Positions 14,826 to 64,000 of a stretch of DNA of 64,000 bases are shown piece after piece. The stretch is taken from assembly GCA_044892505.1 (NCBI GenBank), contig CM097882.1, positions 96,038,001 to 96,102,000 on the forward strand, in the 5' to 3' direction. The DNA comes from Schmidtea nova. Its lineage: Eukaryota. The notes beneath the pieces are model-generated. The model did no database searches. It was not told the origin of the DNA and worked only from the letters and a program-made list of their open reading frames with translations. The translations under genes were made by a program, and so were the position numbers. Position 1 is the stretch's first letter, and every line of letters starts with the position of its first letter.

Positions 14826-15201
14826 TTTTCAAATATTGTTCATATCCTTTCATTTTTTGTTTATAGGTTTTTTCATACTTCTTTTACGTTTAAGAATCCC
14901 GCCATTTTGTTTATTTTGAGTTTTATTTTCTTTTAACACATCAGCCATTTTCTTAATGACTTGTGGTAAATGATGAATCACATCAGGTAATGAATCTTTA
15001 ATTTCAGAAATGTCATTGATTTTAGTGCAGGTAAAATCTTTGAATTATTATTTAACACGTCATTGGCAGTTTTCATACCAAAATTTCCAATACGTCTAAG
15101 AATTAGTAATGCAAATCTACCTACTTCTTTCCTACAAAATATGGCAATTCACCACCTGTTTGGTTGTTGCTATAGAAACTGATAATATCTGGATTATTCA
15201 T
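14823..15201 (-). pseudogene. Homolog of the conserved small Maverick protein at 58652-59059, decayed
   Basis: MNNPDIISFYSNNQTGGELP start and the INKKMKGY end are recognisable; indels are present. Confidence 0.8.
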
Positions 15202-15676
15202 TTATTTTACGGAAAAGTAATATCAAGTAAGGCTTGTCTTCTTTTGCTAATTTAACTATTTTTCCACTGTCGTCACGAATATTGATTTCTATATTGTTTA
15301 TAGATGTAGAACTGACAGGTAAATACATTAAACTTTTCTCAACAATTTTTAACAAATCTCCATTTTTATGTTTTGCAACCCAATTACATTTCAATAGGGC
15401 AACTGACATGTCACCAACAAGAATTTGTTGAATAATATTCGTATAGATGAACATTTGTAGATAGAGTTGTATTATATTGTTTTATTGAATTATTACCATT
15501 GTGGTGTACTCATCAGACAGGTATAATTTTTTTTTTATAATTGAGTGTATCTGTATAGACAGTTTGGATTCCCCCTTATATTGTTCTATTTTTAGTTTAA
15601 GGTGTAGAAGGGGTCAAGAGAGGAGTTGATGATGGTTGTATTTTGCCTTGCGTGTGATATTAATAGTAATAGTGTG

Positions 15677-15759
<83 letters not shown>

Positions 15760-15957
15760 TTAAAAATTAAACAAGAATCGATTAAGCAATTTCTATAGTA
15801 AACTCGTTTACTATAGAAATTGCTAAGACAGAAATAAAATAATAAAAATTGATTAATATAAATAAAAATTATAAGCAAGATATTTTATGAAAAGATTCCA
15901 CTAAATTTTAATTACGCAGGGGAATTAAGAAAATAAGAAAACCAAACTCCCTACAAT

Positions 15958-18822: not shown

Positions 18823-19361
18823 TTAGGCAGAAATAAAATAAAAATTGATTAATATAAAAAAAATTATAAGCAAGATATTTTATGAAAAGATTCCACTAAA
18901 TTTTAATTAGGGTTAGGCAGAAATAAAATAAAAATTAATTAATATAAATAAAAATTATAAGCAAGATATTTTATGAAAAGATTCCACTAAATTTTAATTA
19001 CGCAGGGGAATTAAGAAAATAAGAAAACCAAACTCCCTACAATTATCCAGTTGCGAATTGTCGAGACAGTTAAATAAAATATCCTCGAATCTGTGAGTAG
19101 ATTTATTGAAGTTTTATATCATAATAAAATTTGTTATCAGTTATTCTTGTTGTTGTTAATAGTTGAAATTGTTATTCAGCATTCAAACATAGGCAAGCAC
19201 GCACTCACACCCATAAGCACTTACACAACACACACCCCGACTGTCCCAACATAAATCGGTGACTCTCTCGGGCTCTATAAATCTCTCTTTATACATACAC
19301 AAACTTACATAAACAATACTAAATCAATATCTAAAACAACGTAAACACATAACATTACAAC

Positions 19362-22268: not shown

Positions 22269-22968
22269 ATTACAACCATCAATAGTTTTGTCTGTAAATT
22301 CTTGATCTACTAATCCTAATGAATTGGCCAAATTTCTACTAAATTTAACACTAGTTATATCATTTTCAAGAATTTATTTAATTAAGTTTCCTTCTTTAAT
22401 ATCAATCAATTTAAATGGATGTGGATAAAACTCTCGATTTTATCCGATAATTGAGTAAGATCATTTATTAACAAATCTTCTTAGAATTTATCAGTATATC
22501 CCACCGAGAAATTTTAAGTTATAGTAAATCGTATAGTATCAACAAATTTTTTTATTATCATCGGCAGAAATTATAATTTTATTATAATTTTCATTAAATT
22601 TCAGTTTTTTCTTTAAATCGTACTTTTTGAGCTTGTTCAATACTTGTTCAATATTTACAATTTACATTTAAAATATTGCTGTCAATATACAAAAATAATA
22701 CCGAGAATCGTGACTAATTTCATATTCATTCTTTTATTGGTTAAAATTGAAATATTCATAACTAGAATCAAATTCACTTTTAGTAATTTTTATACTTGAA
22801 CTATTATAAAGTGGAAATTTATTGTACACAAAGTAAAATCTATAAGAGCAACTTCCCAACTACCATCCAAATAAATCGGGTTTTGATAATCCACATCAAA
22901 TTTTTCAGCTTTATTGTTGAAATGTGTCAATAGGCAAGAATTACTTGGTAAATTAACATAAAAATCTT

Positions 22969-45636: not shown

Positions 45637-46038
45637 TTATTGTTTTAAATAATCAATTACACCAGACAAGCATCCTTTATATGCACACATACTATGGTCT
45701 TTATATGGACATGAGATATTTTCTGGAACATCTTCAAATTCTTTAAAATTATATTTAATTAATCTCAATTTCGGGAAATATTTCTTCAAAACTTGCAACT
45801 TTTCATTATCTGTAACATAGAATATAGCTCCTTTATTTTCAATATCATCCATAATACATTTTGGACAAAAATAATCTTGTCCTTCAAACGATTCTATACG
45901 ATCAGGCCATAAAGATAAATCACTGTATATATAATAATGAGGTGTGAAGATATTATTGACATTCATAATACATAATTCCTTAATTGTTGTTCCTCCCATT
46001 TCATTATAACCATAAATATCGATAAAATAACAAGACAT
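45637..46038 (-). CDS. Maverick accessory protein, possibly a DEDD-like nuclease fold with a C-terminal Cys/His cluster
   Basis: Intact 133-aa ORF. N-terminal FIDIYGY...IKELCI resembles a DxE..KE first-strand pattern; C-terminal CPYKDHSMCAYKGC. TATAAAC 37 nt upstream. The fold is inference. Confidence 0.55.
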   Translation of the reverse strand: MSCYFIDIYGYNEMGGTTIKELCIMNVNNIFTPHYYIYSDLSLWPDRIESFEGQDYFCPKCIMDDIENKGAIFYVTDNEKLQVLKKYFPKLRLIKYNFKEFEDVPENISCPYKDHSMCAYKGCLSGVIDYLKQ

Positions 46039-46070
46039 TTTTTCAAAAAAAAATTATTAAAATAAATTGT

Positions 46071-46449
46071 TTATAACATTGATTTCAACCATGCAAGGCA
46101 ATGTTCACCACAAGTGATTGTTAAAGGATGTTGATACCGAATTATATTATACACAATAGGTTTACCAATAGTTTGAAGTTTTCGAACAAGTAAATTTGGA
46201 TAATAATATCCAAAGGGATCAAATACATGTATTCGATCTGGTTTCACGTAAACTGCAGTCCAATGTTCACCGCCCAATGTAGATGTCTGAGTATTTACAA
46301 TGATGGCTTGATTCATTTTCAAATAAGGTATTTTATCTAGCGAAAATACTCCAATAAATTGATTTCCCAATAGTTTTTTACCTTGATGTAATACCTGAAT
46401 AGAACTAATTAAAAATAAATAATTAATCAATTAAAAAATCTTACTCCAT
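46071..46449 (-). CDS. Adenain-like cysteine protease, spliced (ATG GA micro-exon; 40-nt intron at 46405-46444)
   Basis: GGEHW, HVFDPFG and CGEHC catalytic motifs; the spliced start reads MDSIQVLH. Confidence 0.92.
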
Positions 46450-46506
46450 GATGATAATAATAATAACTTATAATAACTTTGGTCATTTATACTATTTGAG
46501 CAGAGC

Positions 46507-47720
46507 TTAAACTAATAATGTTCGATTGGCAGTAATTTGAACTTCATTTTCAAAAACTCCATATATAACTACATGAACCGGTTCCTCAATAGGTTTTGCA
46601 AACTTTATATCGAGTCTTAAATTTTCGTTTTGAGGGATTTGGCTTTGATTCAAATCAAAATCGGGAGCCAGAACAAATGTAAAGAATGGATAACTAGATT
46701 TATCTAGATCAATACCACAATTCAAGTTTTTATCCAAATAACCTAGATTTCGGACAAGACTTTGCATATATGATGAACTAAAATTATCATTTTCAAAATC
46801 CTGGGTATGTTTCACGATAATCGGTATTTTTCGACAATGTTAATGAAGTCACATTAAAATGTTTGAATGTAGATGTTGACTCTGTATAAGATCCATTATA
46901 TTGATTTTCGGATTGAAAAGCCACAAGAATGAAATTAGGCATTCGTTTATCTCCAAATATTTGCTCCTTGTAAAATGACAATGCCCCTTTACCGATTGCA
47001 AACGATACGATTTCTTTTGATTTTATAGGATAAATTGCATGTTTTTTATTTAAACCAATTTGATGACCAGCCAATACTGAAGATTCACATCGAACTCTTC
47101 TTACCATTAATTTTGCATCAACTATTTGGATTATTGGTTTCCCAGCTGCCGATTTCAATGATAATGCAGAATCAGATCGCTTCAATCTAATATGTACATT
47201 AACTCCGGGAAGTAAGTATTTAGGTTGATCCATAAAATCCAGTTGTAATGATGAACACATGTTGAAAAGTTTCGATCCTTTGATCCATTTTTTCCTATCT
47301 TCAGCTGCACCATATCCCATTGGAGTAAGACATGTTTCTTTCGCATCATTCGCATAATTTAAAATAGTTTCGATTATTGCCTTGTGCGCATATGTATTGT
47401 TGCCACCCTCGATTTTTATATTATTAAATCCGAGAATTACATCTTTGAAAAGTGTATGAAACAAGTAATTATTAGGAACTACATCACTTGAATCACCTAG
47501 AGCCTTTTTATCTTTATCTACAACCTACGACAGTAATGGACAATAATGTATCGTTCAAATCCAAATATTCGGTTTGTGAACCATTAATGTAAAATTCAAC
47601 ATCATTTCTACTATCTGTAATAGAGTTCATTGGGAACACATCTTCAAACACCCCATATTCAATAACTGCTTGAGGTGACGGTCGATCAAAAAGACATAAT
47701 TCAGATTTACCGCAAATCAT
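46507..47720 (-). pseudogene. Major capsid protein (double jelly-roll), frameshifted into three pieces
   Basis: KSELCLFDRP, TEYLDL, QPKYLLPGV, FTFVLAPDFDL; colinear with 59056-60282. Confidence 0.93.
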
Positions 47721-48100
47721 TCTTCAAATATAGTTTCATGACCTTTCATTCGTTTGTTTATACGCTTTCGTTTACGTCTTGGTCCTACTGGTACAGATTC
47801 TGGTTCCTTAATTTTTGTAAACATATTTGTAATTGAAGGAAGCATTTGTGTTACAGCAGGTATAGCTTTATTAACTGCAGCCAAAGCATTGGTTTTCAAT
47901 GACGGTAATATTTTATTATCTTTCATGATAACGTCCTTGGCAGTATTCATTCCGAAATTACCTAGTCGTCTAAGAATTGGAAGTGCAAATCTCCCAATAG
48001 TTTTCAACCAACTTGATCCATACTGTTTACCGACAAAATACGGTAATTCACCACCAGTTTGGCTATCACTGTACATAGAAACTATATCGGGATTACTCAT
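47717..48100 (-). CDS. Conserved small Maverick protein upstream of the major capsid
   Basis: QTGGELPYFVGKQYG..WLKTIGRFALPILRRLG; ortholog of 58652-59059. Confidence 0.85.
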   Translation of the reverse strand: MSNPDIVSMYSDSQTGGELPYFVGKQYGSSWLKTIGRFALPILRRLGNFGMNTAKDVIMKDNKILPSLKTNALAAVNKAIPAVTQMLPSITNMFTKIKEPESVPVGPRRKRKRINKRMKGHETIFEE

Positions 48101-48129
48101 CGTTTTTTCGAAAATGTAGAGTTAAGTGA

Positions 48130-48410
48130 GTTTTTGAATCTTTTGGAAATTTTATTAGTCATCCGCTGTCATCCCTGATATTTATTTCTATATTGTTTAT
48201 ACAGGATGTTGAAACAGATAAATACATTGGGTTTTCTACTTGTATTTGAACAATTTCATCTTGTTCGTATTTTTCGATCCATACCGATTTTAGTAAAGGA
48301 ACCAAGGAATCACCAACAATTATGAGTTCGATAATGTTAGTATACACGAATAATTGCTGATGAAGTTTAGATAATTTCGGTTGACGAATACCAGAAATGA
48401 TATTTTTATC
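48130..48410 (-). pseudogene. 3' fragment of a minor capsid gene joined in frame to the integrase
   Basis: KLHQQLFVYTNIIE..VGD..VPLLKSVW..NPMYL..IEINIRDDSG. Confidence 0.85.
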
Positions 48411-49353
48411 GATTCTAAATATTGTCGGTGGAGGAATAACTTGTAATTCTTGTAGGTAGAATTTGCCGCTGATTATATTGTTATCAGAGTCACAAATAGT
48501 ATACATGACAGGATTCTGCACTGTGTTGACTTTCGATATTTGATATATCTCATCACTCCAATTATTATCAAAATTTTTAATGAATGGCGATGCACTAATC
48601 TTGCTAATTCGAACATGATCACCAATTTTATATTTTGGTTTCTTTATTTTCGTATCACTCAAAATATTTTCAGTATCTACTACTTCTACTGGTTTCCTGC
48701 TATTTATACCCCGATGAGCACTATGATTATAACTGTGAATCATTTCAGGTAAAACATTAATCCAGGTTTTATTGCCTTTAAAAACAAAGTATTTTTTCAA
48801 TCGATCACGTAAAGTTCGATTAAATCTTTCGACATGAGCTGCTTTGAATTGCGAGAATACCGAATAATGATTTATTCTCTTGATAACTTTCTTGACTTTA
48901 CTGTTGTAAAATTCCTTTCCTAAAAAATATTAAATATATATATATAAATTTATATTTAAATTTACCCAAATCGGTTTGTAAATTAGTTGGCCGATCCTTT
49001 TTCATCATTGTCTTGATAGCGATTGCCATGTCATTAGCAGATTTAGATTTTACTCCAATTGCTCGAGCAAATCTACTGTAAACATCAATACATGTTAAAA
49101 TATACTTGTATCCCTTGTTAATAGCAGAATACGGAATCATTTCCATCAAATCCATTTGCCACAAATCATTGATTCTATATGTTTTATATGCTCGAGTTGG
49201 AAACCGTTTCAACATCGGCTTGTTTAGACTGTATGCAAGTTGCCCCGATAACCAACTTTGTGTCTGTTGTTTCGACTTCTGTGCTTTTTTCCTTAGCTTT
49301 TCGACTCCACCGAAACCGGCGTCATCTTTTTAGTTCGTCCAGATCTTCTACAT
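48411..49353 (-). pseudogene. Retroviral-like (rve) integrase with a 46-nt intron (48920-48965), early stops, chromodomain deleted
   Basis: WQMDL, QTDLG|KEFYN (restored by splicing), HVERFNRTL. Confidence 0.92.
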
Positions 49354-49408
49354 TACAACAAGAAGATTTAAAGTTTAAATTTAAATTAGGTAATGATTGA
49401 CCCATTGT

Positions 49409-49908
49409 TTATGACTTTCTTTTTCCCAATAAACCAGTACCTCCCAATAATGATAATGCTAATGGTAACAATGCTGCGATAAAACCACCTTGTTGTTTAT
49501 ATATTATTTTGCGCATAAGTTTTCTATTTTTTGTGTTTACTAGCGATAATGGTTTTTTATGTTTGTTCATAACACGTCGATTAGATGGAGTTAGATTCAT
49601 TTTACCTCGACTTTAATTAAAATAGCGAGTAAATCATCGATGACGTAATTAGGAAACGATTGAAGAATACCCATTCTTCTAACGGAGGGGGCTTTAAGTA
49701 ATGCATTAAAAAACGGTAAACTACGATTATGTAATAATGGTTTAGCATTAGATTTCAAATTAATTTGATTAGTTTTGGGAATATTATCTATAATTATTTT
49801 CTTGGATCTTGATTTCTTTCTTGATTTCTTTGTTGATTTCTTTATAATTAGTTTCTTTGTTCTAGCCTTTATCAATGGCTCAAACTTTACTCGAGATTTC
49901 ATTAACAT
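49409..49908 (-). pseudogene. Basic Lys-rich peptide fused to a homolog of 55122-55451, with one frameshift at about 49600
   Basis: RSLPFFNAL..AP...IDDLL and SLVNTKNR...KIIYKQQGGF match the element B ORF; a KKSTKKSRKK N-terminal tract is present. Confidence 0.75.
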
Positions 49909-49938
49909 TATTATGATTGCAAACAGAATTAACTTTGT

Positions 49939-50553
49939 TTAAAAAACCATGGCTCCTTCAGTGTTAAAAATATCAGTTCTAACTCGTAAATCATCACTGC
50001 ATTGTTGAGTAAAATCCAGGAAAATATATCCATGAGGAGATTTTGTAGCATCTTGAAAGGCTTCAATCAAAAAGTAACGATTTGAAGGATAAGCTTGTCT
50101 TGCCAGAAAATCAATAACTGTTGCATCTCTAGGATTTTTAAACACAACAAGATATTGAACATTTAAATTACGGGTTCGATGACTACCGCCCTGATGAAAT
50201 AAATTCTGAGTTATAAAAATAACAGTAACACCTTTATGTCGACTGATTTTCGTAAATAAGTTATTGAAATCCTTTTCTTTATTTGCTTCTTGATACAAGT
50301 CATCAATGATAATCACATCACCTTGTTTTAATCTAGATGAACAGTTTTTATTGAAACCTTTTATGATTGTCATTTTTATTTTACAAAACTGATCTTGAGT
50401 CATTCCGCTTTCGTCGTCAGCACCCCTATGCCAATAAATATTATTGAATTTTGATTTGAATAATTTCGATTGCAATAATTTACAAACAAATAAAGTTTTT
50501 CCACTCCCGCTCGGACCAACAATTTGAAACACTGCATCATTTCTTAATTCCAT
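49939..50553 (-). CDS. A32/FtsK-like DNA packaging ATPase
   Basis: Walker A GPSGSGKT, Walker B IIIDD, SRH, FITQNLF; the C-terminal few codons are altered. Confidence 0.93.
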   Translation of the reverse strand: MELRNDAVFQIVGPSGSGKTLFVCKLLQSKLFKSKFNNIYWHRGADDESGMTQDQFCKIKMTIIKGFNKNCSSRLKQGDVIIIDDLYQEANKEKDFNNLFTKISRHKGVTVIFITQNLFHQGGSHRTRNLNVQYLVVFKNPRDATVIDFLARQAYPSNRYFLIEAFQDATKSPHGYIFLDFTQQCSDDLRVRTDIFNTEGAMVF

Positions 50554-50645
50554 ATTTCAAAATTATATTTAATTAATATTATTGTTTATATTTGTTTTAA
50601 ATACTGGTTCTCAAAGTAATTTTTCATTTAAAAATATTTTCAGTA

Positions 50646-51113
50646 ATGATTAGAAACATTAATTACAAGGGTAAGACATATGTATCACACATGAAATTTC
50701 CAAATGGAAAACCCCAGCAAATTGTAGATAGAAGTGGAAAATACCCAATAATATACTTTAAAACAGGAAGATATAGAATAATGGGATGCAGGGAATTTAT
50801 TAGTGACGAACAAGTTGAGTTTTACGATTTAAAAATACAATCGATAACTGTAACTGCGGATTTAGGATTTATTTGTAATTTGAATGAATTATCTAAATTA
50901 ATACCATGTGTTTACGAGCCAGAAATATTTCCAGCTTTGAGATATATCAAATATAATCCCATGTGTGTAAATATATTTGCAAGGGGGAAATTAGTCATAT
51001 TAGGATTAAAAAACAAAGACTATTCAACTATAGTTGATGATATTATTTACGATATAAAATCAATTATAGAAGATAAAGCCTTTGTTGATTTCATACTAAC
51101 ATGTGACTCATGA
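50646..51113 (+). CDS. TATA-binding protein (TBP)-like protein, 155 aa, intact copy
   Basis: Second TBP repeat: LKIQSITVTADLG...VYEPEIFPALRY...VNIFARGKLVILG (cf. YEPELFPGL..LIFVSGKVVLTG). Shortened first repeat: IRNINY...KFPNG...IIYFKTGRYRIMG. Recognised from motifs only. Confidence 0.82.
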   Translation: MIRNINYKGKTYVSHMKFPNGKPQQIVDRSGKYPIIYFKTGRYRIMGCREFISDEQVEFYDLKIQSITVTADLGFICNLNELSKLIPCVYEPEIFPALRYIKYNPMCVNIFARGKLVILGLKNKDYSTIVDDIIYDIKSIIEDKAFVDFILTCDS

Positions 51114-51376
51114 CTGCAATATCGATGCAGTAGAAATGCACGATTCTGATTGGTTCTGTGTGTATTTCGAGAATAAAGACATGTTGTGCATGCTTGAATC
51201 TGATTGGTTCATTATGTGTGTTTCAAATCATGTGTGTTTCTTTCATATATATACTATGAACAATCTGACATAGTTTATATCTACAATTATGTCTCTAACA
51301 CAAACTTTGATTAAAAGCCGTAAGGATTTTAATTATTTATTATTCATAATTAATATTTTTTTTATTTAGAAAAATA

Positions 51377-51790
51377 ATGAATGTAATATACAGAAAATTG
51401 GAGGAGCTTTTCCCGAACCTCATGCCGGCTCTCGTGTACACAGCTCCGGAGATGTTCCCGTACAAGATCATGATCTTGACGGGAATCGATATTAACCAGA
51501 TCGTCCTGGACCATATGACGAATCAAAATACGGATATACCCGCTGTGGCAGAGCACATTCTATGTGCATACCAATGTGGAAGCTGTGTCGAACGTATCCG
51601 GCAATTCAATATATGGGTTTTGAGAAACTCGCTCAAATTATTCGATACCGAACAACAACAACTGGAAAAAGTTGAGGAGGAGGAGGAGGAGCAAATAAAG
51701 GAAACCTGTGTGTTTCTTTCATATATATACTATGAACAATCTGACATAGTTTATATCTACAATTATGTCTCTAACACAAACTTTGATTAA
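51377..51790 (+). CDS. Unknown Maverick protein downstream of the TBP-like gene; C-terminus probably created by the duplication junction
   Basis: RKLEELFP.L...L.Y.APE...KI...TGI.I.Q..H shared with 53332-53720; preceded by a GT..AG 5'UTR intron-like segment. Confidence 0.65.
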   Translation: MNVIYRKLEELFPNLMPALVYTAPEMFPYKIMILTGIDINQIVLDHMTNQNTDIPAVAEHILCAYQCGSCVERIRQFNIWVLRNSLKLFDTEQQQLEKVEEEEEEQIKETCVFLSYIYYEQSDIVYIYNYVSNTNFD

Positions 51791-51852
51791 AAGCCGTAAG
51801 GATTTTAATTATTTATTATTCATAATTAATATTTTTTTTATTTAGAAAAATA

Positions 51853-52266
51853 ATGAATGTAATATACAGAAAATTGGAGGAGCTTTTCCCGAACCTCATG
51901 CCGGCTCTCGTGTACACAGCTCCGGAGATGTTCCCGTACAAGATCATGATCTTGACGGGAATCGATATTAACCAGATCGTCCTGGACCATATGACGAATC
52001 AAAATACGGATATACCCGCTGTGGCAGAGCACATTCTATGTGCATACCAATGTGGAAGCTGTGTCGAACGTATCCGGCAATTCAATATATGGGTTTTGAG
52101 AAACTCGCTCAAATTATTCGATACCGAACAACAACAACTGGAAAAAGTTGAGGAGGAGGAGGAGGAGCCAATAAAGGAAACCTGTGTGTTTCTTTCATAT
52201 ATATACTATGAACAATCTGACATAGTTTATATCTACAATTATGTCTCTAACACAAACTTTGATTAA
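51853..52266 (+). CDS. Second tandem copy of the same unknown protein
   Basis: Part of the 476-bp duplication. Confidence 0.55.
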   Translation: MNVIYRKLEELFPNLMPALVYTAPEMFPYKIMILTGIDINQIVLDHMTNQNTDIPAVAEHILCAYQCGSCVERIRQFNIWVLRNSLKLFDTEQQQLEKVEEEEEEPIKETCVFLSYIYYEQSDIVYIYNYVSNTNFD

Positions 52267-52763
52267 AAGCCGTAAGGATTTTAATTATTTATTATTCATA
52301 ATTAATATTTTTTTTATTTAGAAAAATAATGAATGTAATATACAGAAAATTGGAGGAGCTTTTCCCGAACCTCATGCCGGCTCTCGTGTACACAGCTCCG
52401 GAGATGTTCCCGTACAAGATCATGATATTGATATTTTCATCACTGCAGTATTCGTAAAAAGTGGAATAAATATGTTAAAAATTTGTGTATGAATCTTTTC
52501 TGTTGATAAAAAGATATTTTTGTATCGCCATGTATTATTTATAAACTTTGTTTTATTTATAATATCGATTTAATTTTTAAATTTTTTAAATACATTAATT
52601 TATTTTAAATCCATTAATTTCAGCATGCATCTAATAATAATAATAATAATAATAATTTTTTTACCCCCCCCCCCAAAAAAAAAATTTTTTTGTTTAAATG
52701 AAGTGAATTTTTTAAATTTTTTATTTTGTTTAAATGAAGTGAATTTTTTAATTTTAATTATTT

Positions 52764-53722: not shown

Positions 53723-54228
53723 TCAAAAATATGGATTTGTAAAATAACAATTTATTGAAACAAAATTAAATAATAAATCGAGATATTTTTCATCAATTAA
53801 TTCATTATTGATTAATGAATTAATATAATTTTTAATTTCATTAACTTGATTAAAATAATCCAATGTTTTAATTCCTAATATTACAACTATTCCACTTGAA
53901 AAAATATTAATGCAAATTGGGTTATAATTTATTAATCTCAAAGCTGGAAATATTTCGGGTTCGTACCAGCACTCTGTTTTATTTTGCAATTCGTATAAAT
54001 TTATGGATTTACCCATATCCAATGTTATAGTGATCGATTGAATTTTTAAATCAGAAATTTTATATTTCAAATCATCTGGTTTTAACGGTTGCTTACAACC
54101 CATTACACGGCATTTTCCCGATCTGAAAAATAATATAGGGTACTTCCCGCTCCTTGCTGGGGTTTTCCAACAGGAAATATCATGTTTGGAACTAAACACT
54201 TGCCCTTATAATTAATATTACTTATCAT
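53723..54228 (-). pseudogene. TBP-like gene of element B, with one frameshift near codon 26
   Basis: True start MISNINYKGKC (ATG 54228) matches 50646; then PILFFRSGKCRVMG, LKIQSITITLDMG, WYEPEIFPALR, INIFSSGIVVILG. Confidence 0.82.
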
Positions 54229-54246
54229 TTTTATAAATTGAATAAA

Positions 54247-54253
54247 TATAAAC
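54247..54253 (+). promoter_or_regulatory. TATAAAC promoter motif upstream of the ATPase (representative of a recurrent motif)
   Basis: 38 nt before the ATG; the same motif lies 37 nt before the element A ATPase (50584-50590, minus) and before most other morphogenesis genes. Confidence 0.65.
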
Positions 54254-54284
54254 AATATTAAATTAAATAATTAATTAAATAAAA

Positions 54285-54908
54285 ATGGAATTAAGAAATG
54301 ATGCAGTTTATCAAATAGTGGGCTCGAGTGGTAGTGGAAAAACATTATTTGTATGTAAATTGTTGCAATTAAAAATGTTTAATTCAAAATTCAATAAAAT
54401 TTACTGGCATAGAGGAGCTGATGAAGAACATGGACTGACTCAAGATCAATTCTGTAAATTAAAAATGACAATTATAAAAGGGTTTGATAAAAACTGGTCA
54501 TCTAGATTACGTCAAGGCGATGTTATAATTATCGATGATTTGTACCAAGAAGCAAATAAAGAAAAAGATTTTAATAATTTATTCACAAAAATTAGTAGAC
54601 ATTTAGGAGTTACTGTAATTTTCATTACTCAAAATTTATTTCATCAAGGTGGTAGTCACAGAACTCGTAATTTAAATGTTCAATACTTGGTTATATTCAA
54701 AAACCCAAGAGATGCTACAATTATTGATTTTCTAGCAAGACAAGCTTACCCTAATGATAGAAAATTCTTAATTAATTCATTTCAAGATGCTACTTAAGTT
54801 CCTCATGGATATTTATTCTTTGATTTTACTCAACAATGTCCTGATGATTTACGCATCCGAACGGATATATTTAACGAAAATGGAGTCACGGTTTATAAAC
54901 AAAATTGA
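54285..54908 (+). pseudogene. A32/FtsK-like packaging ATPase with a premature TAA at 54795-54797
   Basis: GSSGSGKT, IIIDD, SRH, FITQNLF. The frame continues after the stop (VPHGYLFFDF..DDLRIRTDIF), matching element A. Confidence 0.93.
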
Positions 54909-54929
54909 AAATAAATAAAAGAAATAATA

Positions 54930-55091
54930 ATGTCATTTAAAAAAGTAATTGTCAAGTTAAATAAAGAAGCTATTCAAAAAGCTGATCAAAAACTGATTAA
55001 AAAAGTTGATCAAAAATCTAAATTAGTTAAAAAAGTTACCAAAAAGATTGGTAAAAGAAAGAAACAAGTAAAGAAGTGGATAAAATTATAA
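54930..55091 (+). CDS. 53-aa Lys-rich small ORF, candidate DNA-condensing core protein (not in the ORF track)
   Basis: MSFKKVIVKL...GKRKKQVKKWIKL; 20 Lys; TATAAAC 36 nt upstream; positional equivalent of the basic tract at 49.8-49.9 kb. Confidence 0.6.
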   Translation: MSFKKVIVKLNKEAIQKADQKLIKKVDQKSKLVKKVTKKIGKRKKQVKKWIKL

Positions 55092-55121
55092 ACGAAATAA
55101 ATATACACAAAAATTTTAATC

Positions 55122-55451
55122 ATGAAATTTGAACGTAGTTTACCGTATTTTAATGCTTTGGTTAAAGCTCCAACAAATAAGCGAATGACAATTTTACAAG
55201 CTTTCCCACCCTTTGTTATTGATGATTTACTTGAAATCGTTTTTAATATTGTTCATGGTAATGTAAATATTAGTAGATCAAAGAAAATTGAACTACAAAA
55301 ACATAAAAATTCACTTTTGTCATTAGTGAATACCAAAAATAGAAATCTTATACGAAAAATAATATATAAACAAAAGGGTGGGTTTCTCGGTACATTAATT
55401 CCAATAGTATTATCAGCAATAAGCGCAATCTCATCTTTAAGAAATGGGTAA
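55122..55451 (+). CDS. Conserved small Maverick protein ending in QKGG-FLGTLIPIVL (candidate protease-matured, membrane-active virion protein)
   Basis: Intact ORF with an ortholog in element A; the GG followed by an amphipathic helix pattern is common in Polinton small proteins. Confidence 0.8.
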   Translation: MKFERSLPYFNALVKAPTNKRMTILQAFPPFVIDDLLEIVFNIVHGNVNISRSKKIELQKHKNSLLSLVNTKNRNLIRKIIYKQKGGFLGTLIPIVLSAISAISSLRNG

Positions 55452-55513
55452 TAAAATTTCTGAACCTAATAAACATAATATAGATTTAAATATTTTAACA
55501 AATTGTTGTATTA

Positions 55514-56601
55514 ATGAAGAAAATCATGAAGAATATAAAAACGATATGGACAAACCCAAAAGATCCCGATGGTTTTGGTTCAGTCAAAAAATTGGCAAAA
55601 AGAATAAAAAGTTCAAAGAATGAAACTCAGAAATGGTTATCTGATCAATTGGCATATAGTTTAAATAAAGCAATGTTGAAAAGATTTCCTACACGGAAAT
55701 ATAAAACTTTTGGGGGTAACGATTTATGGCAAATGGATTTGATGGAAATGATTCCTTATTCTAAAATTAACAAGGGTTACAAATATATTTTGACTTGTAT
55801 TGATGTTTTTAGCCGTTATGCACGAGCTATTCCAACAAAAACTAAATCTGCTAATGAAATGGCTGAGGCTATTGAATCTTTATTTAAAGATGGGAAGCCA
55901 CGTAATTTACAAACTGATTTGGGTAAGAAATTAAATTAAATTTTTTTAATTATTTAATTTTAATTTAGGAAGAGTTTTATAACAGCAAAGTAAAAGAAGT
56001 GATCAAAGGAATCAATCATTATTCTGTATTTTCTCAATTCAAAGCTGCTCATGTTGAAAGATTTAATCGAACTTTAAGAGATCGTTTGAAAAAGTATTTT
56101 GTGTATCAAGGTAACAAAACATGGATAAATGTTTTACCGAAAATTATTTCCAGTTACAATCGTTCACCGCATTCGGGATTAAATAAAATGAAACCTATCG
56201 ATGTATATTCAAATAATAATTTTGATGGATGGATAAAAGATAGATTAAAATCAATTAATAAAAAACCGAAATATAAAGTAGGCGATTATATGAGAATGAG
56301 TAAAATCAGTGCTTCTCCCTTCATCAAAAATTTTGATAGTAATTGGAGTGATGAAGTATATCAAATCTCAAATGTTGATACTAATCAAAATCCAGTCATG
56401 TATACTATTTCCGATCATGAAAACAATGTAATCGAGGGTAAATTCTACGAACAAGAACTTCAAGTTATTCCAGCTCCCACAGTTTTAAGAATTCAAAAGA
56501 TTTTAAAAACCAAAACTGATGGGAAATATAAACAATATTACGTTAAATGGCATGGCTATGAAACTCCAAGTTGGATATCTGAAAAACAATTGATTAAATA
56601 A
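55514..56601 (+). CDS. Retroviral-like integrase with a C-terminal chromodomain; 46-nt intron at 55923-55968 and an apparent 2-nt deletion just after it
   Basis: WQMDL, QTDLG, HVERFNRTL; chromodomain QYYVKWHGYETPSW. The intron matches element A in position and length. Confidence 0.92.
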
Positions 56602-56606
56602 ATATT

Positions 56607-57644
56607 ATGAAAGAAAACCAGTTTTATATGATTTTACCTAGCAATGCATGTCCTCTTATTTATCCTAATAATGAAGCTAGTAATTTTAATGTAGAATTTC
56701 AAAATCCGATTTATTTAAATAGTAATGACGATTGGGAAGTTGCTTTGATTGATTTTACTTTTGTGTATAATTTGTTTCCGTATTATAGTAATTCTTTTAT
56801 TCAAATTGAAACTAAAAGAGAAATTCAAGAAATTAGTTATTTGAGAATTAATAATCAAAATAAAACAATTCAAGTTATAGTTTCTCAACCTAGTTCAGAC
56901 ACTGATGTATTTATTGAAAAATATAATTATTTAGTGATTGTTTGCCCACATGTTCTCTTTAAAATTACATTTCCAGATCTTGAACATGCAAAAAGTTTTG
57001 GATTGGATAATATATCAATTACAAGTGAAAATGACCATTGTCGTTTAAAATTACCAAAATTCAGGAATGATAATAGTCTTGAACAATTTGGAATTTTAAT
57101 AAATTATGAAATTAAAACTGTTAATGATTATTATTTTCAAGATGAATTATTCATAACGTCATTACCAGAATTGCAAGGATATTTAATGAAAATTAATCTA
57201 TCTCCATTTAAAGAATTGAAACTTGTCAATAATGAATTGGTTAAAATTATTCTTCAGGATAATATTTCAAAAATTACTTTTGATTCAAATTTAACCAAAT
57301 CTCTGGGTCTACAGAAACAAACATATACTGATACCGAAATAATTGGTGTAAAAATCCCCAAAATTTTACAACTTCATCAGCAAATGTTCATTTACAGCAA
57401 CATTATTGAACCAGTAACTGTTGGAGATGTACGAGTTCCCCTCCTAAAATCAATTTGGATCAAGAAATATGACCAAGGCGAAGTTGTACAAATTGAAATA
57501 AAGAATCCAATGTATTTGCCGATTTCAACATCAACTATAAACAACATTGAAATCTATATTCGTGATGACAGTGGAAAATTAATTAAATTTTCAAAAGATA
57601 CAAAGACTCATTTGACTCTACATTTTCGTAAAATAAATGATTAA
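56607..57644 (+). CDS. Minor capsid (penton-like) protein 1
   Basis: FYMILPSNA..WEVAL N-terminus and NPMYLP..IEIYIRDDSG..TLHFRK C-terminus around a variable insert. Confidence 0.88.
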   Translation: MKENQFYMILPSNACPLIYPNNEASNFNVEFQNPIYLNSNDDWEVALIDFTFVYNLFPYYSNSFIQIETKREIQEISYLRINNQNKTIQVIVSQPSSDTDVFIEKYNYLVIVCPHVLFKITFPDLEHAKSFGLDNISITSENDHCRLKLPKFRNDNSLEQFGILINYEIKTVNDYYFQDELFITSLPELQGYLMKINLSPFKELKLVNNELVKIILQDNISKITFDSNLTKSLGLQKQTYTDTEIIGVKIPKILQLHQQMFIYSNIIEPVTVGDVRVPLLKSIWIKKYDQGEVVQIEIKNPMYLPISTSTINNIEIYIRDDSGKLIKFSKDTKTHLTLHFRKIND

Positions 57645-58659
57645 AAAAGATTTTTATGTTAATTTACCAAGCAATTCTTGCCCATTGACACATCCTAATA
57701 ATAAAGCTGGAAAATTCAATGTTGAATATCAAAACCCAATTTATTTCGATGGTAGTTGGGAAGTTGCTCTTATGGATTTTACTTTTGTGTACAATGAATT
57801 TCCGTTTTATAATAGTTCAAGTATAAAATTTATTAGAAATGAATTACATTCTAGTTATGAATATTTCAATTTTAACCAACAAAAGAAAGAATATGATATA
57901 AGTCACGATTCTAATTATTATTTAATGTATATTGATGGCAATATTTTAAATGTAAATTGTAAATATTTTCCATTTCAAATAATATTTGATAGTGTTGATG
58001 AAGCTAAAAAATTAGGGTTTCAAGAAAAAGCTGTGACATTTAATGATGAATTAAACAAAATTAAAATTCCAGCAAATGAAAATAAAACACTTGATGATAC
58101 TATACGGTTTACTATAACTTATACTTTTCCTGTTGAATACACAGATAATTTCAAAGACGATTTAATAATAAATAATCTTACTGAATTATCTGATCAAATT
58201 GAAACTTTTTATCCACATCCATTTAAAGTGATTGATATTAAAGAAGGAAAATTAATTAAATTAATTCTTGAAGATGATATAACTAGTGTAAAATTTAGTA
58301 GGAATTTAGCAAATTCGTTAGGATTAGTTGAACAAGAATTCTTTGACAAAATTATTGATGGCGTATATTATCCACAAGTTTTAAAACTTCATCAACAAAT
58401 GTTCATCTATACGAATATTATTCAACCAATTCTTGTTGGTGACATGTCAGTTCCCCTATTGAAATGTGTTTGGGTTGAAAAACATAAAAAGGGTGATTTG
58501 GTTCAAATTGTTGAGAAAAATCCAATGTATTTACCGGTCAGTTTCACATATATAAACAATATAGAAATCAATATTCGTGACGACAGTGGAAAAATAGTTA
58601 AATTTGCAAAAGAAGACAAAACTTACTTGACATTACATTTCCGTAAAATAAATGAATAA
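57637..58659 (+). CDS. Minor capsid (penton-like) protein 2, tandem paralog
   Basis: Same terminal motifs (FYVNLPSNS, WEVAL, IEINIRDDSG) with a divergent centre. Confidence 0.88.
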   Translation: MIKKDFYVNLPSNSCPLTHPNNKAGKFNVEYQNPIYFDGSWEVALMDFTFVYNEFPFYNSSSIKFIRNELHSSYEYFNFNQQKKEYDISHDSNYYLMYIDGNILNVNCKYFPFQIIFDSVDEAKKLGFQEKAVTFNDELNKIKIPANENKTLDDTIRFTITYTFPVEYTDNFKDDLIINNLTELSDQIETFYPHPFKVIDIKEGKLIKLILEDDITSVKFSRNLANSLGLVEQEFFDKIIDGVYYPQVLKLHQQMFIYTNIIQPILVGDMSVPLLKCVWVEKHKKGDLVQIVEKNPMYLPVSFTYINNIEINIRDDSGKIVKFAKEDKTYLTLHFRKINE

Positions 58660-59059
58660 TCCAGATATTATCAGTTTCTATAGCAACAGCCAATCAGGTG
58701 GAGAATTACCGTATTTTGTAGGTAAGCAATATGGAACTGGTTGGTTGAAAACGATAGGTAGATTTGCATTACCAATTCTTAGACGTATTGGAAATTTTGG
58801 TATGAAAACTGCCAATGATGTGTTAAATAATAATTCAAAGATTTTACCTGCACTAAAATCCAATGCCATTTCTGAAATTAAAGACTCATTGCCCGATGTG
58901 ATTCATCATTTGCCACAAGTAATTAGTAAAGTGACTGATGTGTTTAACGAAAATAAAACTGAAGATAAACAAAATGGCGGAATTCTTAAACGAAAAAGAA
59001 ATATGAAGAAACATATAAACAAAAGAATGAAAGGATATGGAACAATATTTGAAAAATGA
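58652..59059 (+). CDS. Conserved small Maverick protein (QSGG-ELPYF, amphipathic helix, basic tail)
   Basis: Intact ORF; orthologs in elements A and C; overlaps both neighbouring genes. Confidence 0.85.
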   Translation: MNNPDIISFYSNSQSGGELPYFVGKQYGTGWLKTIGRFALPILRRIGNFGMKTANDVLNNNSKILPALKSNAISEIKDSLPDVIHHLPQVISKVTDVFNENKTEDKQNGGILKRKRNMKKHINKRMKGYGTIFEK

Positions 59060-60282
59060 TTAGTGCAAAATCTGAATTATGTCTTTTTGATAGACCATCT
59101 CTACAAGCAGTAATTGAACATGGTTTATTTGAAGATATTTACCCAACAAATTCAATTACAGATGCTGGGACATCATCTATTCAATTTTACATCAATGGAT
59201 CTCAAACTGAATATTTAGATTTGAACGATACTTTACTATCTCTTCAGGTCAAAGTTGTAAACAAATCGGGTGAAAATTTAGGATTAGATGCTGATGTTAC
59301 TCCCAACAATTTCTTTTTCCAAACTCTTTTTAAAGAAGCCGAATTAATTTTCAATTCTACTAAAGTTGAAGGGGGAAATGATACATTTACACACAAAACC
59401 ATGATTGAAACTATTCTCAACTACAATAGTGATACAAAACACACATCCTTATCTCCAATGGGATACAATGAACATGATCTTACTAGAAAAGCATGGATTG
59501 CAAAATCAAAACCATTTTCAATTTGTTCACCGTTACATTTCGATTTCATGGAACAGCCCAAGTATTTATTACCAGGTGTTAGTGTTCAAATTAAATTGAC
59601 GAGATCAAATCCATCCAATAGTTTAACATGTACAAAAATTAAACCTATAATTGAATTATTAGAGGCAAAATTAATGGTTAGAAGAGTTCGAGTAGAACCA
59701 TCAGTTTATGCTGGGCATCAAATTGGACTTGGTACAAGAAATGCAATTTACCCAATAAGAAATAAGGAAGTTGTAGAATTTTCTTTGCCAATGGGTTCTT
59801 CTTCATTTTATAAGGAACAAATCTTTGGAGATAGACGATTACCAAACTTTATTCTTGTAGCATTTCAAGGAAATAAAAGACATAGTGGTTCTTTTACTGA
59901 AACTTATTCTATTTACGATCATTTTAATGTCAAATCATTAACTTTATCGAAAGGAAGTGATTATCGTGAAAAATTTTCTCAAGATTTTGAAAATGATAAT
60001 TGTAGTACTAGTTATATGCAATCTATTGTCCGTAACCTTGGTTACCTGAATAAGAGTATGAATTGTGGTATTTCTTTATCAGATTGGAAAAGCAAATATC
60101 CTTTTTTCACCTTCGTTTTGGCTCCAGATTTTGACCTAAATCAAAGTCAATTACCACAACAAGGTAATCTAAGACTTGATATTAAATTTGGTACACCATT
60201 GACTGAATCAGTTTCTGTAATTGTATATGGAGTTTTTGAAAAGGAATTACAAATTACAGCTAATCGAACAATATTGATTTAA
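59056..60282 (+). CDS. Major capsid protein (double jelly-roll), intact, 408 aa
   Basis: KSELCLFD, TEYLDLNDTLL, QPKYLLPGV, RLPNFILVAF, NLRLDIKF; Polinton MCP-type motifs and gene context. Confidence 0.93.
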   Translation: MISAKSELCLFDRPSLQAVIEHGLFEDIYPTNSITDAGTSSIQFYINGSQTEYLDLNDTLLSLQVKVVNKSGENLGLDADVTPNNFFFQTLFKEAELIFNSTKVEGGNDTFTHKTMIETILNYNSDTKHTSLSPMGYNEHDLTRKAWIAKSKPFSICSPLHFDFMEQPKYLLPGVSVQIKLTRSNPSNSLTCTKIKPIIELLEAKLMVRRVRVEPSVYAGHQIGLGTRNAIYPIRNKEVVEFSLPMGSSSFYKEQIFGDRRLPNFILVAFQGNKRHSGSFTETYSIYDHFNVKSLTLSKGSDYREKFSQDFENDNCSTSYMQSIVRNLGYLNKSMNCGISLSDWKSKYPFFTFVLAPDFDLNQSQLPQQGNLRLDIKFGTPLTESVSVIVYGVFEKELQITANRTILI

Positions 60283-60333
60283 TTGAAAATTATTGGTTTA
60301 ATATAAACTAATTTTAATTAATTAATAAAGTAA

Positions 60334-60712
60334 ATGAAGTAAGATTTATTTTAAATAATTAAATTTTATTGATTTTAGTTCAATTCAGGTAGATCAGATT
60401 GCTAGAAAATTAATTGGATCGGAATTTCTAGGAGTTTTTCCTCTAGATAAAATACCGTATATAGATGTGAATAAAGCATTGATTGTCAATACTCAATCAT
60501 CAAACCTCAAAGGTGAACATTGGCTTGCAATTTATAATAAACCCGATAAAATATACGTGTTTGATCCAATGGGATTTTATTATCCACCGATATTGTTGAA
60601 AAAATTATCGTCAATGTTAAAACCAATAGAATATAACAGAATTCGATATCAAAATCCAATGACAAAAACCTGTGGGCAACATTGTTTAGCTTGGCTAAAA
60701 TATATGAAATAA
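60334..60712 (+). CDS. Adenain-like cysteine protease, spliced (ATG AA micro-exon; 40-nt intron at 60339-60378)
   Basis: The spliced start reads MNSIQVDQIARKLIG..GVFPLD; KGEHW, VFDPMG and CGQHC catalytic motifs. Confidence 0.93.
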
Positions 60713-61690: not shown

Positions 61691-62220
61691 TTATTCATGA
61701 AAATCAGTAATTTTCCAAATAGGTTTTATCCCGTTTTCGGTTTGTTTAAATCCTTGTAAGATAATTTGAATTTGATACATTGAATTTTCATCTAATTTGT
61801 CTAAATCTGTTTCTTTTTTACAGTTCATATATGTGAATTCCTCGTTGAATTGAATATCTTTATTTATTAGCATTAAAATTTCTGATAGATTCTTTCTGTC
61901 AATTTCCCCGATTTTTCCAACCTGAATATTGTATTGACATTGTTTCAATGTAACAGGTTCCTGTAAATAATATTAATTTGATTTTTATAATATTTTAATT
62001 GATTACTTTAAATGAATATTTGATCGGGTATTTCAAATACTCCATCGAGTATTGTAGAAATTGAACTGGTGGATTCAATGCCAAATTAGATGAAGAAATA
62101 GGATTTTCCTCAAGAATAATCTTCATTATTTCTTGTTTTGTCATTCTTTTCGATTCTAGAAAAAATAAATTAAAAAATAATCATTTAAAATTAATTAATC
62201 TTACTTTTCAGTTGATACAT
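61691..62220 (-). CDS. Three-exon Maverick accessory gene (62220-62205, 62155-62007, 61960-61691; 144 aa), possible OB-fold SSB
   Basis: Two canonical GT..AG introns (49 and 46 nt) give one open frame homologous to 3-401; upstream GATTGG, and TATAAAC 37 nt before the ATG. Confidence 0.75.
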
Positions 62221-62421
62221 TTTTTAATGATTATTTTAATTTTATAAGTCGTTTATATAGAAATTTTTAAATTATTTTGACCAATCATAATCAATAAATA
62301 TATATTACGATATTTTGATTTGAATGTGTGTATACACACTTGATATACATCATTGATATTTTATCTTAATTTTTATCATAATTTTTTATCATAATTCTTA
62401 TATTATTTTTTAAATTTATAG

Positions 62422-64000
62422 GCAATTTATATCAAAAATATTGAAACTCCACAATTCATGATGTAAAATGCCATGAATTAATGGAAAAATATTATGCATA
62501 CCCTCATAATTGTAAAACCTACTACATTTGTCCTTTTTGTAAATCTACTTCGTCCTCTTCGTATATTGACTTTTACAATACTCATTGCGATCATTTAGAC
62601 CAATTTAAAACATCTAAAAAATCAATTTTTAAATTACCGCTTAAAAGAAAATGTAATGAAAATAATCCAATCCCAGTCAAAATTAACAAGTCAGTTCTTT
62701 CTGATGATATTTCTTCAGTTGTTCCTCCAATTGTTCATTCAATTGTTCCTTCAGTTAATCCTTTAATTGTTCATTCGGTTGTTCCTTCAGATATAGTTGT
62801 AATTTCTGATGATGATGATAACATTCTTGGTAATGATATCATTCTTGATGATAACATTCTTGGTAATGATACCATTCCTGATGATAACATTCTTGATAAT
62901 GATACCATTCCTGATGATAGCATTCTTGATATAAATAATCTTTCTGATTTTGTGGTTGTAGACACTTTTGATCCTATCGATAATATTCAAATTGGTGGTT
63001 CTTTTGATAAAATTTGTGACGATAAATACTCTTTAGTTCCTGAAGTACAGGTTGGTGGCTCCATTTTACCAGTTGTTAAATTTGATTTAAATAAATCACA
63101 TGCTATAGTGAAAATGATTGTAACTAACTTGAATTTAAAAAGCATGTTTGTACCTGATAATTTAATTAATAAATTAAATAATGTAATTGAAACGATGGGA
63201 ACGGTTAAAATTCAATTTTGCATCGAAGTTGAGTTTGAAAAAGATGGTGCTTTTCAAACTATAGTTATTTCTAACTCTGCAAAACCTGTCACAGATACCT
63301 TTATAGACGATGGCATTAATATTCTTAATGAAAAAATTACATTAATTAATAATAGAGGCAGTAACTGGATAATTAATAAAATTAATGAAATCCATTTCAT
63401 ATTAACCAAATTTTCTGAGATTAGTAGGTTAATAGGTTACGGTGGTATTGACACTCCTGAATCTTTAAAGTCAAAACATTGTGTTGTAAATGTTCAGAAT
63501 TGTGATGACTTGTGCTTTATCTATTCTGTTTTGGTAATTATTAAATATGATGAGATATCTGGTCGTAAAAATAAACATAGGATCAGTAATTACAATCTTT
63601 CAGATGTTAACTTTAGTCCTTCTGATTTGCCTATTCGTCTTTGCAATATCCCAAAGTTTGAAGCTAAAAACCCGGGATATGCGATTAACGTACTTTCATA
63701 TGATGAATCTGGAATTCTAGACACTAAGCCTGAAGTTTTCAAACATCCGTGTATTGACATAATTCATAGGTCGAAAGTAGTAGACGGAATTCCTATTAAC
63801 TTGATTCTTTTGCAAAATGGTGACTCTTTTCATTATATAGCAGTAACCAATCTTGATAGGCTTTTAAATCTTGACAATAAATTAATATCTGGTACTCGTA
63901 TTCAAAGTATATGGTGCCATCGGTGCTTGAATGGGTTTAGATATCAAGATTCATTTGTTCGTCATCAAGAGTTGTGTTCTAAAAATCAATTAGGCACAAC
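62422..64000 (+). CDS. polB: pPolB of element B, N-terminal part (open to the window end; in-frame TGA at 62442-62444, ATG at 62481); absent from the ORF track
   Basis: MEKYY..YYICPFC, KIQFCIEVEFEK, VNVQNCDDLCFIYS, KNPGYAINVL, IIHRSKVVDG, WCHRCLNGF, LCSKNQLGT align with the 2685 ORF. 33-bp repeats at about 62815-62930. Confidence 0.93.

Follow-up and report, generated by a model that had tools for sequence, protein, structure and literature searches.

A TATA-like word before the structural genes of Polintons in Schmidtea nova and a candidate element-encoded TBP to read it

The window analysed here is a 64,000-nucleotide (nt) stretch of Schmidtea nova DNA (assembly GCA_044892505.1, contig CM097882.1, positions 96,038,001 to 96,102,000 of the forward strand) from a source genome, labelled G000, that is AT-rich and 1.25 Gb in size. 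It holds two Polinton elements, A and B, and a Polinton fragment, remnant C; all of these copies are truncated or run off the window end (Table 1). In element B the gene order is a divergent TBP-like gene, an A32-type ATPase gene, a basic open reading frame (ORF), the PM gene, a small MG...CC ORF, an integrase gene, two penton-like genes, PW, the capsid gene, the protease gene, a minus-strand gene and the polymerase gene. A sequence-only reading of the window had drawn attention to the word TATAAAC, found before most of the morphogenesis genes, and had proposed it as an element-specific late promoter, possibly read by the TBP-like protein. The analysis presented here indicates that a slightly wider form of this word, xATAAAC(A/G), is very probably a promoter element in TATA position with one copy for each gene, and that it belongs to a deep clade of Polintons in many hosts, for which "element-specific" is too narrow a term.

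The identification of these elements as Polintons is based on natural copies elsewhere in G000 as well as on gene content. The copies end in inverted repeats of about 1 kb with AGT/ACT termini, and a 6-bp target duplication, ATTATC, flanks the A copy on both sides (L127-L129); the genes include an rve integrase, an ATPase, an adenain protease and a double jelly-roll capsid protein. The structural model of the B capsid protein matches the folds of iridovirus, PBCV-1 (Paramecium bursaria chlorella virus 1) and mavirus capsids (best E 5e-16); a search of PDB sequences gave 0 matches. The two penton-like genes are presumably such from their position and the usual Polinton gene order, and the PW label is likewise assumed from position. 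As described in the literature (PMC8502044, 10.1101/697771, PMC8097293), Polintons, Mavericks and adintoviruses have in common with these elements AGT...ACT inverted repeats, a target duplication, integrase and, as a putative match, polymerase B, as well as an ATPase, a protease, a double jelly-roll capsid protein and a pX-like gene.

All 15 of the TATAAAC sites originally listed, with their distances to the next ATG, proved correct on recounting, as did the codon contexts given for sites within upstream genes (cat, cgt or cct, and act, tat, tgt or tct, before ATA AAC). That these sites precede morphogenesis genes is mostly true; the exception is the site at 62257, which leads to a non-structural, intron-containing gene. 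The target of the site at 46075 is the gene following the protease gene and not the protease gene itself. Five sites can be added to the list, at 55365 (+) and 49501 (-) and as the variants AATAAACA at 55468, CATAAACA at 49413 and TATAAAT at 46491. At 48201, the A copy in the window has an ATG at +39 that is missing in two other copies.

The background count that the sequence-only reading had called for bears it out: TATAAAC occurs 41 times in the window vs 27.5 times in shuffled sequence, and none of 100 shuffles reaches 41. The surplus lies on the sense strand of the A and B gene blocks, with 9 sites in B vs 1.25 expected (0/300 shuffles; antisense, 1 vs 1.17) and 5 sites in A vs 0.94 expected (1/300 shuffles), while flanking DNA is at background (6 vs 6.8 and 10 vs 9.9 sites). 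For the plus-strand sites of B, the first ATG at +32 or beyond is the annotated start codon in nine of nine cases.

Table 1. Polinton elements, genes and sites of the upstream word in the window; positions count from the first letter of the 64,000-nt stretch
Element	Feature	Position	Strand	Remarks
A	Polinton	~45600-52500	-	
B	Polinton	~53300 to window end	+	
C	Polinton fragment			split by nested insertions (15500-22270)
B	Short TBP-like gene	53723..54228	-	PF00352, E 5e-12; no motif upstream; frameshifted near 54154 in window copy
B	A32-like packaging ATPase	54285..54797	+	PF04665; ends early in window copy
B	Lysine-rich basic ORF	54930..55091	+	putative core protein
B	PM-like ORF	55122..55451	+	C-terminus like adenovirus pX, PF05829, E 1.3e-5
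B	Small MG...CC ORF	55444..55623	+	overlaps integrase start in another frame; found in 11/11 lineages covering region
B	rve integrase with chromodomain	55514..56601	+	PF00665, E 1.3e-9; GT-AG intron-like insert near 55923-55968
B	Two tandem penton (minor capsid)-like genes	56607..58659	+	0 family matches
B	PW-like ORF	58652..59059	+	
B	Double jelly-roll major capsid protein	59056..60282	+	model pLDDT (predicted local distance difference test) 92
B	Adenain-type maturation protease	60334..60712	+	PF00770; first exon 5 nt, intron 60339-60378
B	Three-exon non-structural gene	61691-62220	-	behind 62257 site
B	Family B polymerase gene, start only	62481..64000	+	motif-based label; no promoter motif upstream; leaves window
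A	Short TBP-like gene	50646..51113	+	155 amino acids (aa), open frame, PF00352, E 1.8e-12; no motif upstream
A	Counterpart of small MG...CC ORF	49179-49405 region	-	
B	TATAAACA	54247..54254	+	38 nt before ATPase; 18 nt from divergent TBP start codon
B	TATAAACA	54894..54901	+	36 nt before basic ORF; in other copies codes ATPase C-terminal YKQ
B	TATAAACG	55087..55094	+	spans basic ORF stop; 35 nt before pX-like PM gene
B	TATAAACA	55365..55372	+	inside PM; 79 nt before small MG...CC ORF at 55444
B	variant AATAAACA	55468..55475	+	46 nt before integrase ATG
B	TATAAACA	56527..56534	+	in integrase chromodomain; 80 nt before penton 1
B	TATAAACA	57536..57543	+	in penton 1 (T-I-N-N); 101 nt before penton 2
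B	TATAAACA	58551..58558	+	in penton 2 (Y-I-N-N); 101 nt before PW
B	TATAAACA	59014..59021	+	in PW (H-I-N-K); 42 nt before major capsid gene
B	TATAAAC	60302..60308	+	32 nt before protease ATG
B	TATAAACG	62250..62257	-	37 nt before three-exon non-structural gene
A	TATAAACA	50583..50590	-	37 nt before ATPase
A	TATAAACA	49494..49501	-	96 nt before small MG...CC ORF
A	variant CATAAACA	49406..49413	-	60 nt before integrase start
A	TATAAACA	48194..48201	-	in penton end; 101 nt before PW
A	TATAAACA	47755..47762	-	in PW; 42 nt before major capsid gene
A	variant TATAAAT	46485..46491	-	42 nt before protease ATG
A	TATAAACA	46068..46075	-	37 nt before conserved gene after protease
C	TATAAACA	15295..15302	-	101 nt before PW
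C	TATAAACA	14858..14865	-	40 nt before capsid start

Relatives were retrieved with a capsid alignment of 110 sequences, and the best 80 of 91 metagenome loci were used along with a natural copy of A and one of B. These form 62 clusters at 85% capsid identity, each represented by one sequence, and genes whose start lay within 130 nt of a contig end were left out; the 62 lineages reach down to about 30% capsid identity. A de novo search over the upstream regions of these many copies, which the sequence-only reading had suggested, ranks TATAAAC as the top 7-mer before six structural gene classes (97/139 windows vs 8.6 expected; reverse complement, 0). The consensus over 122 sites is xATAAAC(A/G), mostly TATAAACA. 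Positions 2-6 are invariant and position 8 is A or G; position 7 is C in 97 sites, T in 17, A in 4 and G in 4. Position 1 varies more freely (T 93, C 17, G 6, A 6), and the earlier statement that the first T is kept does not extend to the relatives, in which 29 of the 122 sites lack it. The first base gives way to the needs of the protein, for example in the capsid C-terminal QINK that precedes the protease gene.

The clade that includes A and B comprises 44 rows and has a support value (SH-aLRT, Shimodaira-Hasegawa-like approximate likelihood ratio test) of 99 on a quick tree; the counts by gene class approximate this clade by a capsid identity of at least 37% plus four named loci. Within it, the relaxed word precedes the ATPase gene in 10/10 cases, PM in 9/10, the MG ORF in 11/11, penton genes in 16/17, PW in 22/23, the capsid gene in 36/37 and the post-protease gene in 11/14, and it precedes the protease gene in 23/28, with TATAAAT in 4 more. 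It was never found before a TBP gene (0/9), as had been noted for the window, and before the polymerase gene only in one lineage of five (L059); in gene-body windows it occurs in 15/696. The word is oriented with the genes (138 sense vs 15 antisense), and its C at position 7 is kept in genomes of 24-45% GC. The canonical TATA(A/T)A(A/G) is not enriched upstream (capsid 1/37; gene bodies 52/696). These clade-wide counts support the proposal of one promoter-like site for each gene, embedded in the preceding gene.

Several comparisons indicate that selection acts on the DNA and not on the encoded protein, as had been suspected from codon positions. Within promoter windows, 58 of 100 instances of the peptide x-Ile-Asn use the codons T|ATA|AAC vs 3 of 233 elsewhere; outside these windows AAT outnumbers AAC three to one, and 13 different residues provide the first T. 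Synonymous resampling of B gives 1.5 sites vs the 5 observed (1/2000). The ATPase C-terminus reads YKQ in motif-bearing lineages and does not in L097 or L110. Among 24 penton ends, 17 have the internal site, in every case without a second. In the remaining seven, from which the Ile-Asn peptide is usually gone too, a strict word stands at the gene end in five, a variant stands there in one, and a variant remains at the old place in one. These relocations occupy three or more separate parts of the capsid tree (quick tree, SH-aLRT support). This turnover of the penton site is a stronger sign of DNA-level selection than codon usage.

The distances from word to start codon are concentrated at 33-45 nt, with no more than 2/98 below 32. 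ATG triplets out of frame with the downstream gene make up 2.8-2.9% of positions up to +31 (227/8115, 49/1708 and 7/244) vs 2 of 2139 positions from +32 onward, and this disappearance of stray ATGs fits scanning from a cap near +29 to +32. A transcription start downstream of the motif, which the sequence-only reading had also expected, would accordingly lie about 29-32 nt after its first base. The usual spacing between TATA box and start for RNA polymerase II (Pol II) is about 30 nt. GT-AG introns in the protease and integrase genes, of which the protease intron recurs across lineages, indicate nuclear Pol II. Internal genes seldom have AATAAA at their ends (PW 0/9, capsid 1/30), and the post-protease gene has it more often (8/16), a distribution that suggests nested RNAs with common 3' ends.

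Both TBP-like genes in the window have at least 150 near-identical matches each in G000. The model of the 155-aa short TBP (pLDDT 89.5) has the two-repeat saddle of the TBP family (Z 11.9, root-mean-square deviation 2.7, 141 aligned residues, residues 1-141). In all 15 pairs compared, the nonsynonymous rate (dN) is well below the synonymous rate (dS), and the gene is under purifying selection. A profile search for the family gave 58 clusters at E 1e-30 or better, and 55 rows were aligned. With cellular TBP (PF00352) the short TBP has in common the fold (Z 11-12 over about 140 residues), three phenylalanines, a proline after the third of these and the EPE stirrup. The helical segments of the N-terminal repeat, in contrast, are about 10 and 12 residues shorter than in host TBP (roughly 22 vs 31 and 22 vs 34 residues).

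Three of the four intercalating phenylalanines are kept (in 53, 55 and 55 of the 55 rows), the first being replaced by Pro, Lys or Thr, and the second base-contacting Asn is Ser in 55/55, so that the full set of four Phe and two Asn of TBP is not found. The acidic stirrup for TFIIB is kept (E91 in 54/55, E93 in 53/55). On the DNA-facing side, N6, R44, M46, S66, R99 and N109 are nearly fixed in the 55 rows, vs cellular V71, V122, T124, N159, I194 and L205; five of these six residues in the short TBP are polar, and hydrophobic contacts are replaced by Asn, Arg, Ser and Thr. This correspondence comes from matching sequence blocks to the host TBP exons in L149 and not from superposition, with yeast numbers partly taken from Table 1 of PMC12529657. 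In yeast TBP, I194 and L205 set specificity (TBPm3; PMC1636458), and PMC12529657 describes a similarly polar DNA-binding face in ORF24, the TBP mimic that KSHV (Kaposi's sarcoma-associated herpesvirus) encodes. The changes to the face lie in both repeats, and C7 is therefore not singled out by them. For a TFIIB partner, 0 TFIIB family matches were obtained among 19 ORFs near TBP genes or unlabelled, although a diverged one is possible. In the G000 families the TBP and ATPase genes are arranged head to head, with the ATPase box 18-60 nt from the TBP start codon (54228-54247; 50590-50646), and binding at this box could therefore shut off the TBP gene; this arrangement is not kept in relatives. 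G000 also contains intron-less, full two-repeat TBP paralogues (L151:1204-1818, minus strand, and L152) that differ from the host TBP (L149) and also from the short TBP of the Polintons.

All clade loci in which a short TBP is seen (nine representatives and L130) carry the word. In L155 neither a TBP match (in 20.6 kb) nor a word before the structural genes was found, and the same is true of L109 and L110 (in 5.6 and 6.9 kb). A link between protein and word within the clade is suggested by these sequences. A search of G000 with a distant capsid, for a same-host control without TBP, gave 96 matches, and the four loci examined all belong to the same motif-bearing group. The viral contig collection provided no capsid relative, one unrelated TBP locus and, of five loci, one usable control (L155), and a search of the phage collection gave no match. 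In the outgroup Polintons L074, L077, L080, L093, L103 and L107, TATAAATA stands upstream of the capsid and PW genes where the clade has TATAAACA; a few outgroup loci carry TATAAAC, and none of these outgroup contigs is long enough for a TBP to be seen.

The small MG...CC ORF, which carries a CC or CA motif, has a start that suggests, from sequence, myristoylation and palmitoylation, and the word precedes it in every lineage that covers the region. The integrase of L059 is a single uninterrupted ORF. Candidates for a protein-primed family B polymerase, ORFs of 1070-1300 aa, have exonuclease motifs and polymerase motifs A and B in 3/3 relatives and DTDS in 1/3; Pfam, PHROGs and PDB sequence searches with this ORF returned endonuclease VII only. 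The last exon of the gene behind the 62257 site matches L059:1256-1822 (29% over 83 aa, E 1e-8). A DUF5871/DUF2738 assignment for this gene, a lead from an L056 protein, was rejected because that protein fails to align with the gene's homologue (E 0.25). Relatives carry accessory genes for a ubiquitin-conjugating enzyme and a RING protein, each preceded by the word, as well as for a dual-specificity phosphatase (L059:225-719, L031:1710-2168, L036:952-1260). L097:12141-12725 (minus strand) is a longer Polinton TBP gene that keeps the first helix, and no shared upstream word was seen by eye in that locus. Elsewhere in the window, an ORF of the polymerase type, 1210 aa long and containing an endonuclease VII-like insert (2685-6317, plus strand), belongs to another Polinton copy, whose own structural genes are not nearby; at 51246-52520 a 476-bp unit in about three tandem copies holds part of the gene adjoining A's TBP gene, with an antisense TATAAACT in each (51279, 51755 and 52231, minus strand) and no long ORF after them; and remnant C contains a hAT element (19931-21879) and, by eye, retrotransposon-like frames.

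On this evidence the account that we favour, with some reserve, is that the word, under selection as DNA, is a Pol II core promoter bound by the element's own short TBP, turning the packaging and capsid genes on late. Its parts differ in strength: that the short TBP reads the word is likely, and that the two together make an early-to-late switch is a shade less secure than the account as a whole. Under this scheme, host factors would first express the genes without the word, those for the TBP and the polymerase. The short TBP would then bind the word through its polar face in place of the hydrophobic face of the host protein, with a preference for TATAAACA over TATAAAAG, and the retained EPE stirrup would recruit host TFIIB and Pol II, with RNA starting about 29-32 nt after the first base. 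Each site might yield one capped mRNA of which the first ORF is translated, the mRNAs of one block being nested with common downstream poly(A) sites, and each gene would therefore need its own promoter inside its neighbor.

A number of observations weigh against this account. The lineages share ancestry and are therefore not independent trials, so that P values from the binomial and Fisher tests are overstated. Codon choice at Tyr-Lys did not differ significantly (10/12 vs 18/35, p 0.09), in part because the test scored sites preceding the basic and MG ORFs as "elsewhere". A pyrimidine-purine (YR) peak at +31, in 50/83, might have passed for an initiator, and was set aside as not independent because it comes mainly from two protein-constrained sites. 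Most contigs are short, so only a few cases underlie the co-occurrence of TBP and word, and in L097 a longer TBP, of another type, comes without the TATAAAC word. The absence of one intercalating Phe means that DNA binding by the short TBP is not assured. The word before the integrase gene (often an early function; 6/11 in the clade), the L059 polymerase gene and some accessory genes means that "late" is not a clean split. Finally, TATAAATA at the same places in outgroups suggests that the box may descend from a TATA box read by the host.

This last point leads to the most serious rival, in which the word is a Pol II TATA box read by host TBP/TFIID and the element's TBP is a decoy, a repressor of host promoters or a reader of other sites. 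We regard this as unlikely, though well ahead of the remaining alternatives. TATAAAC differs by one base from the canonical TATA box, cellular TBP can use it at reduced strength, and the spacing from word to start is ordinary. Hoogsteen pairing in the C(-25) variant was reportedly described by Patikoglou in 1999. By its title, PDB entry 1qn3 is wild-type TBP on this variant, and in plant protoplasts TATAAACG retains 27% of the activity of TATAAATA (PMC10005294). The reduced helical segments and missing Phe of the short TBP point the same way, as does TATAAATA in L074, L080, L093, L103 and L107. However, a position 1 that drifts combined with a near-fixed C7 (97 vs 4 A and 4 G) is the reverse of the cellular preference, as far as Tables 4-5 of PMC10005294 show it, and the persistence of C7 across the range of GC content, the lack of enrichment of canonical boxes and the consistent absence of the word before the TBP gene itself also speak against host TBP as the reader.

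Other readers or roles for the word are much less probable. Forkhead factors recognize the consensus RYAAAYA, and the invariant ATAAACA core, as well as a loose first base outside a seven-base core, would fit a host Forkhead-class factor driving tissue-specific expression of the structural genes; yet the other strong Forkhead word, GTAAACA, is found in 2/136 windows (background 4/696), and the strict orientation and fixed 32-nt boundary fit an element that positions a start site, making this proposal improbable. Borrowing of the late promoter of a helper large DNA virus has precedents in Sputnik and mavirus, which rely on the late promoter of their helper, and in a Polinton-like virus that has the early motif of its own helper (10.1101/2022.07.28.501842), and it is considered equally improbable here, given the GT-AG introns that imply nuclear Pol II, a TBP supplied by the element itself and the lack of an identified helper. 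Least probable of all, and largely refuted, is the reading of the word as a variant poly(A) signal belonging to the upstream gene or as a side effect of the peptides INN, INK and YKQ in AT-rich DNA. While xATAAA resembles AATAAA, lies near gene ends and in several cases falls in conserved peptides, many sites are located some 100 nt ahead of the stop codon of the upstream gene, a site also precedes the first gene of a block, and the first base is A in only 6/122; the silent positions are fixed and exceed synonymous resampling (vide supra), and the peptide changes when the word moves and is not present in motif-less relatives.

If the short TBP is the reader, the closest known parallel is the late promoter system of beta- and gamma-herpesviruses (TATTWAA; KSHV ORF24 and Epstein-Barr virus BcRF1), in which, according to PMC12529657 and PMC4893493, a one-base TATA variant likewise precedes structural genes and a virus-encoded TBP-fold protein with a polar face works with host Pol II, an arrangement proposed here from sequence and models. 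The herpesvirus variant base is T at position 4, whereas in the Polinton word it is C at position 7. The Polinton TBP is a bare core of 145-160 aa, shorter than that of the host, while the herpesvirus protein is large and multi-domain; the Polinton protein keeps the TFIIB-contact glutamates that ORF24 lacks, and has three Phe vs four. The herpesvirus system also needs six proteins (an ORF24-type protein and five partner activators), and no partner activators were found for Polintons; fold matches of the short TBP to BcRF1/UL87 are weak (E 0.012-0.048). By analogy, the Polinton promoter is best described as working like the herpesvirus viral pre-initiation complex (vPIC) system and not as a member of it. 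Relative to the cellular TATA box, with which it has in common the distance of about 30 nt to the putative start, the word differs in its C7 and loose first base. In virophages and Polinton-like viruses, promoters shared with giant viruses likewise mark a temporal gene class by a conserved upstream word, and viral proteins with a TBP fold exist (best E 4e-7), but those systems use the multi-subunit RNA polymerase of a helper or their own, whereas the mapped Polinton copies show no RNA polymerase gene and have spliceosomal-type introns.

A per-gene embedded promoter linked to a TBP has no prior description in Polintons in the literature that was searched, with subscription journals, preprint supplements and Repbase-type annotations outside the search. 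In the portions available, Starrett et al. (PMC8502044, 10.1101/697771) give TBP only as a figure-legend label and describe no promoter, and PMC8097293, 10.64898/2026.06.19.733378 and 10.1101/2023.10.16.562556 make no mention of one. Whether, in a widespread Polinton clade, a single TBP of about 150 residues with a rebuilt DNA face alone steers host TFIIB and Pol II to a private TATAAACA box placed within the coding sequences of adjacent genes, which would make it the smallest known late switch, is at present an evenly balanced question.

A promoter word tied to the capsid module makes it testable how Polintons control their genes and whether they ever make particles. The word persists in lineages whose capsids are 37% identical, predicts start sites with a precision of a few bases as well as sets of co-expressed genes, names a candidate switch protein and reveals genes such as the small overlapping MG...CC ORF. 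For transcription biology, it points to a naturally occurring TBP whose sequence preference may have shifted while its contact with TFIIB was kept. If the short TBP does act alone in this way, it would represent a third, independent invention of viral-TBP late promoters, a natural altered-specificity pair of TBP and promoter, and evidence of an ordered particle-building programme in integrated elements.

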